IMG/VR virus record: IMGVR_UViG_2563366879_000001
Span: 1-34,760 of that record
Length of the DNA stretch: 34,760 bases
Reading direction: 5' to 3' (one strand)
DNA from: a virus
Taxonomy: Duplodnaviria > Heunggongvirae > Uroviricota > Caudoviricetes
Shown here one piece after another: positions 1,128 to 4,790 of the stretch. Position 1 is the first letter of the stretch. The number at the start of each line of letters is the position of its first letter. The position numbers and the translations under genes were made by a program. A model generated the notes under the pieces. The model saw only the letters and a program-made list of their open reading frames with translations, ran no database searches and had not been told where the DNA came from.

Positions 1128-1319
1128 TACTTAAAATCCTTTGTAGAATAATAGAATCACTTTTCTTAATGACAGGAGTAACTAATTCTCCAACTAACTC
1201 TGCGTCCTCACGTACTCGCCATAGTCGACCTTGTTTCATTGCCGGTGTGTAGTGGCACACTGAATTTGGCCACCTGAACAGAGGTGATATGCTCACCTCA
1301 GAACAACACAGGTGCTCCA

Positions 1320-1622
1320 ATGAAAAAAAGAAATTTCAGCGCAGAGTTTAAACGCGAATCCGCTCAACTGGTTGTTGACCAGAACTACACGGTGGCAGAT
1401 GCCGCCAAAGCTATGGATATCGGCCTTTCCACAATGACAAGATGGGTCAAACAACTGCGTGATGAGCGTCAGGGCAAAACACCAAAAGCCTCTCCGATAA
1501 CACCAGAACAAATCGAAATACGTGAGCTGAGGAAAAAGCTACAACGCATTGAAATGGAGAATGAAATATTAAAAAAGGCTACCGCGCTCTTGATGTCAGA
1601 CTCCCTGAACAGTTCTCGATAA
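1320..1622 (+). CDS. IS3-family transposase OrfA (IS911 OrfA-like, helix-turn-helix and leucine zipper)
   Basis: [45 protein letters not shown]... reads as IS911 OrfA. The A-AAA-AAG slippery motif at ~1569..1575 is the -1 frameshift site used to make OrfAB. Confidence 0.85.
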
Positions 1623-1648
1623 TCGGGAAACTCAGAGCGCATTATCCT

Positions 1649-2174
1649 GTGGTCACACTCTGCCATGTGTTCGGGGTTCATCGCAGCAGCTACAGATACT
1701 GGAAAAACCGTCCTGAAAAACCAGACGGCAGACGGGCTGTATTACGCAGTCAGGTACTTGAGTTGCATAACATCAGGTTCTGCCGGGGCAAGAAGCATCG
1801 CCACAATGGCAACCCTGAGAGGCTTCAGAATGGGGCGCTGGCTTGCCGGCAGGCTCATGAAAGAACTGGGACTGGTCAGTTGCCAGCAGCCTGCGCACCG
1901 TTATAAACGAGGTGGTCGTGAACATGTCACTATCCCGAATCACCTTGGGCGGCAGTTCGCAGTGACAGAGCCAAATCAGGTATGGTGCGGCGACGTGACG
2001 TACATCTGGACGGGGAAACGTTGGGCATACCTTGCCGTTGTTCTCGACCTGTTTGCAAGGAAACCGGTAGGTTGGGCAATGTCGTTCTCTCCGGACAGCA
2101 GACTGACCATCAAAGCGCTGAAAATGGCCTAGGAAATCCGCAGTAAACCAGCCGGGGTAATGTTCCACAGCGAT
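1649..2174 (+). pseudogene. IS911 OrfB (DDE transposase) 5' fragment with internal frameshift and premature stop, cut by the IS110-family insertion
   Basis: Two overlapping frames (1649..1906 and 1665..2132) both carry OrfB-like sequence ([19 protein letters not shown]..., [27 protein letters not shown]...). A TAG at 2133 sits where the continuing sequence (..ETRGKPAGVMFHSD) expects Trp. Homology stops at ~2174. Confidence 0.75.
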
Positions 2175-3555
2175 AGTAATAATGCCGGTATCAGTTTTTA
2201 TCATCACTCTGTTTGCTGTTTAACCAGACTGGTGTGATTACTGATGCAGTGAAGACCTTCCCGCATCCTGACTCACACAGCGATCGACCCTTTGTGTCCT
2301 GCCCTGGACCTGTCGGTTGCCGGAAGCGCCTTCATGCGAGGCGTCTCCTCACCGATGCGCGTGACTCAAGAAGGGCCTGACGGTTTGTCTCGTTACTGTC
2401 CTGTCCGGGTTATCTGTCTGGAGATTCAACTCTGTTTCCTCACAGGAGCTCTGTTATGGCAGGTAAAGTTACGGAAACCGCTGTTGTGGGTGGCGTGGAT
2501 ACACATAAAGATCTGCACGTTGCCGCTGTCGTAGATCAGAACAATAAAGTTCTGGGGACCCAGTTTTTCTCCACAACACGGCAAGGTTACCGGCAGATGC
2601 TGGCATGGATGACTTCGTTTGGGGCATTAAAGCGAATTGGTGTTGAGTGTACTGGCACCTATGGATCAGGTCTGCTTCGCTATTTACAGAATGCCGGGTT
2701 AGACGTTCTTGAGGTGACTGCGCCAGATCGGATGGAGCGACGCAAACGGGGTAAAAGTGACACGATTGATGCTGAATGTGCCGCTCACGCCGCATTCTCC
2801 GGAATAAGAACCGTCACACCCAAAACGCGCAATGGCATGATTGAGTCTCTGCGGGTATTAAAAACTTGCCGAAAAACAGCAATATCAGCCCGCAGAGTCG
2901 CTCTCCAGATTATCCATTCCAATATTATCTCTGCCCCGGATGAATTACGTGAACAGCTCAGAAATATGACGCGCATGCAGCTCATCAGGACTCTGGGATC
3001 CTGGCGGCCTGATGCCAGTGAATACCGCAATGTTACCAACGTTTATCGTATTTCATTAAAGTCCCTTGCCCGACGCTATCTCGAGTTACATGACGAAATC
3101 GCTGATTTGGATGTCATGATTGCGGCAATTGTCGATGAGCTGGCGCCTGAACTGATTAAACGTAATGCTATTGGATACGAAAGCGCTTCGCAGTTGCTGA
3201 TCACGGCAGGAGACAATCCCCAACGATTAAGATCAGAATCAGGTTTTGCGGCACTGTGTGGTGTCAGCCCTGTTCCCGTATCTTCAGGAAAAACGAATCG
3301 TTATCGACTTAACCGGGGTGGAGATCGTGCTGCAAATAGTGCACTTCACATCATTGCCATCGGACGTTTGCGAACTGACGATAAAACGAAGGAATATGTC
3401 GCCAGACGAGTAGCGGAAGGGCATACAAAAATGGAAGCAATACGCTGCCTGAAGCGCTATATCTCACGCGAAGTTTATACATTACTGCGTAATCAAAACA
3501 GGCAGATCAACAGCATCCCGATAACGGCTTGACTCTTAGAAGGGCGTCCAGGGCA
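2175..3555 (+). mobile_element. IS110-family insertion sequence nested inside IS911 orfB (no obvious terminal inverted repeats; ~280-bp non-coding left end)
   Basis: IS911 orfB coding sequence stops at 2174 (..agcgat) and resumes exactly at 3556 (cagggcagccactataca.. = [10 protein letters not shown]). The ~1.38-kb insert encodes one IS110-type transposase. Confidence 0.75.
2456..3532 (+). CDS. IS110-family transposase (DEDD/RuvC-like N-terminal domain and C-terminal Transposase_20-type domain)
   Basis: 358-aa ORF. N-terminus VVGGVDTHKDLHVAAV and C-terminal region GFAALCGVSPVPVSSGKTNRYRLNRGGDRAANSALHIIAI are typical of the IS110/IS1111 family. Confidence 0.8.
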   Translation: MAGKVTETAVVGGVDTHKDLHVAAVVDQNNKVLGTQFFSTTRQGYRQMLAWMTSFGALKRIGVECTGTYGSGLLRYLQNAGLDVLEVTAPDRMERRKRGKSDTIDAECAAHAAFSGIRTVTPKTRNGMIESLRVLKTCRKTAISARRVALQIIHSNIISAPDELREQLRNMTRMQLIRTLGSWRPDASEYRNVTNVYRISLKSLARRYLELHDEIADLDVMIAAIVDELAPELIKRNAIGYESASQLLITAGDNPQRLRSESGFAALCGVSPVPVSSGKTNRYRLNRGGDRAANSALHIIAIGRLRTDDKTKEYVARRVAEGHTKMEAIRCLKRYISREVYTLLRNQNRQINSIPITA

Positions 3556-3857
3556 GCCACTATACAAGCAGGCAGTTCCGGCAGTTACTGTGGCGTTACC
3601 AGATCAAACAGAGTCTGAGTCGACGAGGAAATTGCTGGGATAACAGCCCGATGGAGCGCTTCTTCAGGAGTCTGAAAAACGAGTGGATACCGGTGACGGG
3701 TTACATGAACTTCAGCGATGCTGCCCATGAAATAACGGACTATATCGTTGGGTATTACAACGCGCTCAGGCCGCACGAATATAACGGTGGGTTGCCACCA
3801 AATGAATCGGAAAACCGATACTGGAAAAACTCTAAAGCGGTGGCCAGTTTTTGTTGA
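3556..3857 (+). pseudogene. IS911 OrfB 3' fragment
   Basis: Translation ..[95 protein letters not shown] matches the IS911 OrfB C-terminus. Confidence 0.8.
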
Positions 3858-3893
3858 CCACTACAAAACACTGCTGAGATATTCAATTTTCCA

Positions 3894-4790
3894 GTGCCGG
3901 ATGTGGCACAAAAGGAGCGGCGCGTGGCAGATCTCGACGATGGTTATACGCGCATTGCAAATGAGTTGCTGGAAGCTGTGATGCTGGCCGGATTAACACA
4001 GCACCAGTTTCTGGTCTTCCTGGCTGTCATGCGCAAAACATATGGCTTTAATAAAAGACTGGATTGGGTGAGCAACGAGCAACTTTCCGAGTTGACCGGG
4101 ATATTGCCGCACAAGTGTTCTGCTGCAAAAAGTGTTCTGGTAAAGCGTGGGATTTTTATTCAGAGCGGGCGGAATATCGGCATTAATAATGTGGTCAGTG
4201 AATGGTCAACATTACCCGAATCAGGTAAGAAAAATAAAGTTTACCTGAAAGAGGTAAATTTACCTGAATCAGGTAAGAAAAGTTTACCCAAATCAGGTAA
4301 AGACGTTTACCCGAATCAGGTAAACACAAAAGACAAACTAACAAAAGACAATATAAAACCTTTTTCGTCCGAGAATTCTGGCGAATCCTCTGACCAGTCA
4401 GAAAACGATCTTCCTGTGGTGAAACCGGATGCTGCAATTCAGAGCGGCAGCAAGTGGGGGACAGCAGAAGACCTGACCGCCGCAGAGTGGATGTTTGACA
4501 TGGTGAAGACCATCGCGCCATCAGCCAGAAAACCGAATTTTGCAGGGTGGGCTAACGATATCCGCCTGATGCGTGAACGTGACGGACGTAACCACCGCGA
4601 CATGTGTGTACTGTTCCGCTGGGCATGCCAGGACAACTTCTGGTCCGGTAACGTGCTAAGTCCGGCCAAACTCCGCGACAAGTGGACCCAACTCGAAATC
4701 AACCGTAACAAGCAACAGGCTGGCGTGACAGCCGGAAAATCAAAACTCGACCTGACAAACACTGACTGGATTTATGGGGTGGATTTATGA
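3894..4790 (+). CDS. O: Replication initiator protein O (lambda O-like), 5'-truncated by the IS insertion; ori iterons lie inside
   Basis: Residues ERRVADLDDGYTRIANELLEA... LTQHQFLVFLAVMRKTYGFNK match the lambda O N-terminal domain from about residue 18 on. The ORF opens on a GTG 29 bp after the IS911 right end. Stop overlaps the P start. Confidence 0.8.
   Translation: MPDVAQKERRVADLDDGYTRIANELLEAVMLAGLTQHQFLVFLAVMRKTYGFNKRLDWVSNEQLSELTGILPHKCSAAKSVLVKRGIFIQSGRNIGINNVVSEWSTLPESGKKNKVYLKEVNLPESGKKSLPKSGKDVYPNQVNTKDKLTKDNIKPFSSENSGESSDQSENDLPVVKPDAAIQSGSKWGTAEDLTAAEWMFDMVKTIAPSARKPNFAGWANDIRLMRERDGRNHRDMCVLFRWACQDNFWSGNVLSPAKLRDKWTQLEINRNKQQAGVTAGKSKLDLTNTDWIYGVDL
4212..4326. repeat. ori-lambda-type iterons (four to five ~19-bp direct repeats TTACCCGAATCAGGTAAGA and variants), followed by an A/T-rich tract at 4327..4365
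   Basis: Direct repeats are visible in sequence inside the O coding region and encode the ESGKK/PESGKK peptide repeats. This is the same arrangement as the lambda origin. Confidence 0.8.

Follow-up and report, generated by a model that had tools for sequence, protein, structure and literature searches.

Which events removed the control region of a lambdoid prophage that otherwise carries its genes in the order of lambda, and what would the prophage still be able to do after this loss? The question is raised by a stretch of viral DNA of 34,760 nucleotides (nt) (IMG/VR record IMGVR_UViG_2563366879_000001; hereafter, the window), of which we studied positions 1128-3900 together with the flanking genes. 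We consider it very probable that the left part of the window represents the left end of a lambda-like prophage that is integrated at icd in Escherichia coli and defective, that this prophage lost its control region through a deletion associated with an insertion sequence (IS), and that this IS, an IS911-like element, was later itself struck by ISEc21. IS-associated decay of lambdoid prophages and insertion of ISEc21 inside the transposase gene of an IS3-family element are both well-known kinds of event, and the locus, which is already annotated in about 80 public genomes, is a case of ordinary prophage decay. The structure had been described in an earlier note made from the sequence alone; it is real and was for the most part drawn correctly, with corrections needed for xis and O and with lesions in int and in the portal gene to be added.

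The lambdoid features of the window stand in the order of lambda: int-xis, O-P with iterons, nin genes, Q, a lysis cassette and lambda-type head and tail genes. No immunity region (repressor, cro and operators) is found between recombination genes and O, and only two IS elements lie between the truncated xis and O. By its predicted gene content and order, the prophage is a defective lambdoid member from which the immunity module has been deleted.

The ends of the lost segment coincide with the ends of an IS

As the earlier note had proposed, we aligned the window to related prophages to map the endpoints of the deletion. The left endpoint is at 1247/1248 in xis (by comparison with prophage vB_EcoM-689R6, hereafter 689R6) and the right endpoint at 3865/3866 (by comparison with PhiR26_1, lambda and a complete prophage in a GenBank assembly, L015). 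The features on which this mapping depends are as follows.

1..1127, minus strand: integrase pseudogene (intE type, icd-site); start codon at 1127, and the window opens on its stop codon
588-1127, minus strand: N-terminal, Arm-DNA-binding part of int (Pfam Arm-DNA-bind_1)
1-492, minus strand: catalytic part of int, in another frame (Pfam Phage_integrase)
1108..1247, minus strand: xis remnant, the 3'-terminal 45 codons (of 81) with the stop; the start codon and the rest of the first 36 codons are deleted
1248-3865, plus strand: IS911-like IS3-family element, delimited by terminal repeats, domains and comparison with an intact copy
3866..4790, plus strand: replication gene O without start codon, 2 nt of codon 2, ribosome-binding site and native promoter
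4212..4328, plus strand: origin iterons inside O, five TTACCYGAATCAGGTAA-like copies, followed by an A-rich stretch
4787..5488, plus strand: replication gene P, intact (PHROG 109 'P-like helicase loader', E = 2e-98)

On the left side, the int start at 1127 and the IS left end at 1248 are 120 bp apart, in line with the distance of about 120 bp given before. These 120 bp had been taken to lie in a region from which xis was entirely absent; this holds for a working excisionase and not for the gene itself, of which the last 45 codons remain. The evidence comes from 689R6, which is also located at icd and in which an intact integrase gene overlaps at its start with an xis of 81 codons: the DNA alignment to this xis is near-identical through 1247 and unrelated past it, and 689R6 Xis matches the window by tblastn with E = 1e-27. 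A 62-amino-acid (aa) 'excisionase' that RefSeq annotates in related genomes is a chimeric open reading frame (ORF) whose start lies within the left end of the IS and which consists in part of xis and in part of the IS end. Pfam yielded no family for the chimeric ORF, and only direct comparison with an intact xis reveals the remnant; the RefSeq name at this locus is an annotation issue. The neighbouring int gene carries a lesion of its own that the earlier note did not mention. Compared with the intact 376-aa integrase of 689R6, a 1-nt deletion near 607 leads to a stop after 179 aa and splits the arm-binding from the catalytic domain; in RefSeq relatives, the gene is flagged 'frameshifted'.

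On the right side, homology to the intact O genes of PhiR26_1, lambda and L015 starts at 3866, the first base past the IS, in both DNA and protein. At the junction, PhiR26_1 reads GGAGGAATTATGGC|AAACACTGCTGAG and L015 reads GGAAGGAATTATGGC|AAACACTGCTGAG, while the window reads ...CCACTACA|AAACACTGCTGAG. In protein alignments, the O frame of the window aligns from residue 3 of lambda O and of PhiR26_1 O, and the loss of coding sequence amounts to ATGGC only, i.e. the start codon and 2 nt. O was therefore not shortened by about 18 codons, as had been estimated, and it does not resume 29 bp after the IS; the 29 bp are only the distance to GTG 3894. This GTG is the first in-frame start of O, its use would cost 12 residues (leaving positions 13-317 of the 318 of the profile) and no Shine-Dalgarno sequence is evident in front of it. 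The statement that O lacks its native promoter stands, all sequence upstream of O being gone. The remaining frame is assigned to PHROG 277 'replication initiation O-like' (E = 2e-156), the five iterons are intact and correspond in position to the lambda ori iterons annotated inside O, and the gene downstream is annotated as replication protein P in relatives. FDAARGOS_536, a genome that shares the junctions, has an additional 1-nt deletion in O, suggesting that the predicted gene is no longer maintained. We also observed that the stop codon of the IS gene orfB (TGA 3855-3857) is in frame with the O remnant, three codons upstream of the start of O homology; as a speculation, ribosomes ending on the orfB fragment (ATG 3651) could restart at GTG 3894.

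The element between xis and O is a decayed IS911-like element

1248-1274: left inverted repeat (IRL), 27 nt, an imperfect inverted repeat with the right one
3839-3865: right inverted repeat (IRR), carrying an outward TTGACC at 3854-3859
1248..2174, plus strand: left part of the element, compared with L005:1641-2575 of an intact copy on a pO157-type plasmid
1320-1622, plus strand: orfA, with an HTH_Tnp_1 domain
1571-1577, plus strand: A6G slippery site AAAAAAG, the motif of the programmed -1 frameshift between orfA and orfB
3549..3865, plus strand: right part of the element, comprising the 3' end of orfB (rve_3/rve_2), its stop codon TGA 3855-3857 and IRR; 317/317 identical to L005:2576-2892

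The element that occupies 1248-3865 begins with TG and ends with CA, its 27-nt terminal repeats are 74% complementary, orfA encodes HTH_Tnp_1 and the pieces of orfB encode rve, rve_2 and rve_3; together with the A6G motif, these are features of the IS3 family. With IS911 it further shares a length of about 1.25 kb, the imperfection of the terminal repeats and the outward TTGACC in the right end. It differs from IS911 in that its DNA identity to copies that RefSeq names 'IS911 family' is only ~91%, whereas it reaches at least 99% with copies that bear only the name 'IS3 family', and in that no 3-bp target duplication is present here, the flanks being GTG (1245-1247) and AAA (3866-3868). A missing duplication is to be expected when a deletion has rejoined one end, and it speaks for a rearrangement and not against membership of the family. 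By these comparisons, 'IS911-like' is an accurate label for the predicted element. E. coli genomes commonly carry the element; the median number of places is 2 and the maximum 24.

We used as reference the intact 1252-bp copy on the pO157-type plasmid p28RC1 (L005), which RefSeq annotates with 'programmed frameshift'. Relative to this copy, the element in the window has a 5-nt deletion near 1775 that shifts the frame of orfB, a G>A substitution at 2131 that converts TGG to a TAG stop at 2130-2132, and a 1374-bp insertion between 2174 and 2175, and so all three lesions to which the earlier note had ascribed the inactivation of the transposase (a frameshift, a stop and a nested insertion) are seen directly. 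An additional in-frame difference of 3 nt near 1580 looks harmless.

ISEc21 lies at its published target inside the IS911-like element

2175..3548, plus strand: ISEc21 (IS110 family), 1374 bp, with ends taken from the empty site on the pO157-type plasmid and from a second insertion in a sugar-transporter gene
2175-2455: non-coding region of ISEc21, 281 nt, upstream of the transposase gene
2456-3532, plus strand: transposase gene of ISEc21, intact, 358 aa (DEDD_Tnp_IS110 and Transposase_20)
2276-2285: guide segment CACAGCGATC, in the same sense as the left target flank
2299-2306: guide segment CTGCCCTG, reverse complement of the right target flank
Ends of ISEc21 when abutted: ...GGGCGTC|AGTAATAA...

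The nested element had been placed in the IS110 family, and this assignment is borne out by an intact transposase gene within 2175-3548 whose 358-aa product matches PF01548 (E = 4e-20) and PF02371 (E = 2e-12). More specifically, the element is ISEc21: over 1388 nt, the window is 99.6% identical to the copy in the sugar-transporter gene of another strain, which RefSeq annotates as 'IS110-like element ISEc21 family transposase'. Comparison with the empty site shows a clean insertion between 2174 and 2175 with zero duplicated bases. The insertion point, ...TTCCACAGCGAT|CAGGGCAG..., corresponds to FHSD|QGS, i.e. to the second aspartate of the DDE motif in orfB, and the two natural insertions, in the window and in the sugar-transporter gene, have the target CCACAGCGAY|CAGG in common.

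This arrangement agrees with what has been published for ISEc21 in every respect that we compared. The published target is the codon of the second D in IS3-family DDE transposases, the target is chosen with the help of an RNA from the upstream non-coding region, TnpEc21 has 358 aa as does the ORF in the window, the published span of 1574 bp minus two 100-bp flanks gives the 1374 bp of the element in the window, and no duplicated bases are described for the insertion (PMC11187229). Like the published element with its guide of the seekRNA/bridge-RNA type, the copy in the window has a non-coding region upstream of the transposase gene and, within it, guides for both flanks (PMC11187229). These match the two flanks over 10 nt and 8 nt in the published order; the 10-mer match was reached in 6/1000 shuffles, and the 8-mer on its own is not significant. 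We found no difference of substance from the published ISEc21, and the copy in the window is one more natural insertion of the kind that was used to define the target (PMC11187229). The locus thus provides a clean natural example of ISEc21 at its published IS3-family target. We also looked for a dinucleotide core common to the ends of ISEc21 and its target, as in IS621, and rejected this candidate because none fits both junctions. A scan of 1-6000 with Rfam at E <= 1 returned only a chance-level match to rliD (16.6 bits vs a gathering score of 50), and no curated family covers the ISEc21 guide RNA.

No early-gene homologue other than the xis remnant is found in the window

To account for the missing genes, we compiled 22 early proteins of lambda, PhiR26_1 and 689R6 and compared them with the whole window by tblastn. 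The xis remnant was the only match, and Pfam and PHROG scans of the unassigned ORFs in the window yielded no repressor-like or helix-turn-helix repressor protein. The claim that early and immunity genes are missing between int and O, with no cI, cro or N homologue elsewhere in the window, is therefore upheld by the tblastn search.

The best guide to what was lost is L015, a complete prophage at icd that is 99.4% identical to the window over 3866-14295. Between xis and O, L015 carries DUF4222, TraR-type, exo, bet, gam, kil, S24-type cI, cro-like and YdaT-type genes, and the distance from the start of xis to the start of O is ~6.0 kb; the corresponding interval is 9.6 kb in lambda and ~3.8-5.2 kb in ESBL 15 and 689R6. 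Because no lambda-N homologue is detectable in L015 either, the absence of N may not result from the deletion. Consequently, of the earlier statement that the prophage has 'no repressor, no N and no excisionase', the parts on a repressor homologue and a working excisionase hold, while the lack of N may be a property of this type of phage. The int and xis of L015 are of another allele (55-68% and 36% protein identity, respectively, to the window), and L015 is therefore a model of the ancestor rather than the ancestor itself.

More generally, the intact relatives (L015 at icd, L011, L012 and L016 at another site, and PhiR26_1) share with the window O, P, an inverse autotransporter (100% identical protein), an esterase, nin genes and an 82-type Q and, as far as the loci extend, the lambda-like packaging genes Nu1, A and W and the portal gene. 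What sets them apart is an unbroken portal gene, the start codon of O and the presence of exo, bet, gam, kil, cI, cro and the YdaT-type gene.

The junctions are of common descent in about 80 E. coli genomes

A search with positions 1-5500 of the window yielded 81 records, which belong to 80 complete RefSeq E. coli genomes and match this stretch at 98.7-99.1% identity. When searched alone, the right junction was found in 81 records and the left junction in 82, and these are essentially one set, with junctions of common ancestry. The closest match found is GCA_902825175.1 (L014), which is 99.92% identical to the window over 1-19651 and shares with it the broken int, the chimeric xis ORF, the pieces of the IS and ISEc21. 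In junction carriers, icd flanks the element on one side and a partial duplicate of icd on the other, with sitABCD at the far end. No regulatory module is present on either side in the genomes that share the junctions: to the left of int there are only an ATPase/HNH pair and icd (L014), and to the right there are J, tail fibres, sitABCD and the partial icd duplicate (FDAARGOS_536, also L002).

Whereas the left end is shared, the right arm is not. Compared with FDAARGOS_536, the window has 3 differences in 1-4090, all of them inside ISEc21, corresponding to 0.07% divergence; beyond 4090 the divergence is 1.5-5%, and past 12573 the Q, lysis and late modules are unrelated. FDAARGOS_536 in addition has its head and tail genes deleted and an IS4 in J, and none of the complete RefSeq E. 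coli genomes has the late region of the window above ~96%. By this comparison, the dead left end is shared, and recombination among lambdoid prophages has since replaced the right arm; in this way, a left end that is long dead and identical in ~80 genomes can adjoin a right arm exchanged later. In a subset of the carrier genomes (e.g. NZ_CP030111.1 and NZ_AP022650.1), an additional IS30 lies within 1-5500, so that the match falls into two pieces that span an extra 1.2 kb; this IS30 is a further decay step in one sub-lineage.

Origin of the deletion

We propose the following sequence of events. The IS911-like element would have been associated with a deletion that has one endpoint at codon 36 of xis and the other in the second codon of O. 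The deleted interval (~6 kb in the closest intact relative) would have held the recombination genes, kil, cI with its operators and promoters, cro and the gene in the cII position. The IS911-like element would then have been disabled by ISEc21, which would have inserted at the second-aspartate codon, a target picked by the RNA of its own non-coding region, and the host IS would also have gained the 5-nt deletion and the stop codon. With the frameshifts in int and the portal gene, the prophage would persist as a fixed island with cargo genes (the adhesin and the esterase, and sitABCD in relatives). The part of the IS in the deletion is suggested by its flanks: as GTG and AAA do not form a 3-bp duplication, at least one IS end has been joined to its present neighbour by a rearrangement, and unmatched flanks are the expected remnant of a deletion made by an IS end or of recombination between two copies.

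Three observations weigh against this proposal. The junction-only searches (81 and 82 records) returned no genome in which the IS is present and the early region intact, and it is therefore only from its position that a part of the IS in the deletion is deduced. L015, which among intact prophages comes closest to the right arm, has another int/xis allele, and the closest relatives on the xis side have a different replication module, so that ~6 kb is an approximate figure for the deleted length. Finally, the part of the prophage past the right end of the window is seen only in FDAARGOS_536, a relative with a different late region.

The possibility that the IS boundaries are assembly joins of collapsed repeats, with the early region in reality intact, had been named in the earlier note as a way in which the structure could be refuted, and IS elements are indeed common places of misassembly. 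However, 80-81 complete genomes, assembled independently of one another, and additional GenBank assemblies show the identical junctions, which excludes such a join, and the nested arrangement is consistent to the base with the empty-site copy; we regard the chance of an assembly artefact as negligible. A more serious alternative concerns the manner of the deletion. Homologous recombination between two directly repeated IS911-like copies, one in xis and one at the start of O, instead of an adjacent deletion by a single copy, would give the same end state, would explain why the left flank (GTG) and the right flank (AAA) differ, as they would in a recombinant of two independent insertions, and is made easier to imagine by the abundance of the element in E. 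coli genomes. Yet the adjacent deletion by one copy leaves the same unmatched flanks, and none of the 81 and 82 junction records comes from a genome whose early region is intact and which has the IS in xis alone or at the start of O alone. As no intermediate was found, the sequence does not separate the two routes; we hold recombination between two copies to be a plausible route, if the less probable one.

We also considered that the junction fuses two prophages, so that int and the truncated xis would derive from an e14-like element at icd and the O-P-nin-late part from a lambda/DLP12-like prophage, joined through IS copies, and no segment of a single phage would have been deleted. In keeping with this idea, 689R6 and ESBL 15, the intact relatives on the xis side, carry a different replication module, the relatives on the O side carry other integrases, and the right arm has clearly been exchanged since, as documented above by the three single-nucleotide differences left of 4090 and the unrelated Q and lysis genes after 12573. 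But lambdoid phages are routinely mosaic, L015 has the same right arm in a whole prophage at icd, and the element in FDAARGOS_536 is bounded by icd and a partial icd duplicate, as for one integrated element. Because L015 exists and icd-derived sequence is found at both ends, we consider the fusion of two prophages unlikely and favour the IS-associated deletion within one prophage.

Consequences for the prophage

A prophage that has lost repressor, operators, early promoters and the functions of int and xis would, in agreement with the earlier note, not be inducible in the normal way, would not excise and would confer no immunity. From the predicted gene content, it would also be unable to run the lytic programme. 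We therefore suggest that this prophage should be scored as non-inducible and non-excisable despite a late region that looks nearly complete.

In several respects, the element resembles the cryptic prophages of K-12 (e14 at icd, DLP12, Rac and Qin). It is a lambda-type prophage at icd with a module of the intE/xisE type (by RefSeq gene names), and like them it has become locked into the chromosome through deletions, frameshifts and IS insertions while retaining cargo genes. It differs from them in that none of the immunity and recombination region is left here and int and xis are both broken, and in that the late region is almost complete, with 90-100% protein identity to lambda. e14 keeps its repressor and can still excise.

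A possible promoter at the right junction

3854..3883, plus strand: promoter-like hybrid site TTGACC-18-TGnGATATT; the right end of the IS supplies the -35, and TG-n-GATATT lies in O after a spacer of 18 nt

According to a review, IS911 has an outward -35 in IRR (PMC9330008). In the window, the TTGACC of IRR is followed at a spacing of 18 nt by TG-n-GATATT, and the resulting hybrid site scores 9/12 with TG in a consensus scan. The scan of the region returned 8 sites vs 6.0 +/- 2.7 in shuffles; because the number of sites is no higher than in shuffles, we treat the hybrid site as a lead only. It is conceivable, though we think it improbable, that the deletion created a putative repressor-independent promoter at 3854-3883 that transcribes P together with the truncated O and reads into the adhesin gene. 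If so, the IS junction would be part of the expression of the cargo of a dead prophage and not just a scar.

Late region and cargo genes

All of the 20 lambda late proteins from Nu1 to J that we tested have matches in the window at 90-100% protein identity. The portal gene B (19764-21364) contains a lesion that the earlier note missed: a 1-nt deletion at ~20558 relative to lambda (CTGCAGAACACG > CTGCAGACACG) frameshifts the gene and leaves ORFs of 273 aa and 260 aa. Because the same split is present in an independent assembly, L019 (SRR652402), the lesion is probably real. Apart from B, every lambda late gene from Nu1 through I has its full length; J is cut off by the end of the window.

Between P and ybcN, where relatives carry ren, the window contains an adhesin gene and an esterase gene (all in 5743-10731). 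The adhesin is a 1302-aa inverse autotransporter (IAT_beta and Big_1/Invasin_D3 repeats) with an internal duplication of ~350 bp at 7050-7757, and it is followed by a convergent gene for a BD-FAE-type esterase. The identical adhesin protein is encoded by intact prophages at two attachment sites (L015 on the one hand and L011, L012 and L016 on the other). On the chromosomal side of int, the ATPase/HNH pair between icd and int consists of a gene for a 505-aa AAA_15/AAA_21 ATPase followed by one for a 285-aa protein that RefSeq names HNH endonuclease (L001 3358-5732; L014 1621-3995), a pairing that we presume to resemble two-gene anti-phage systems. Finally, the interval between the spanin gene and Nu1 (15242-16785) contains three ORFs on the plus strand, of 120, 141 and 130 aa; two of them fall into PHROGs without an assigned function, and for the other there was no match. 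Because L011 and L015 carry a different gene, on the minus strand, at this position, it is a slot for variable cargo.

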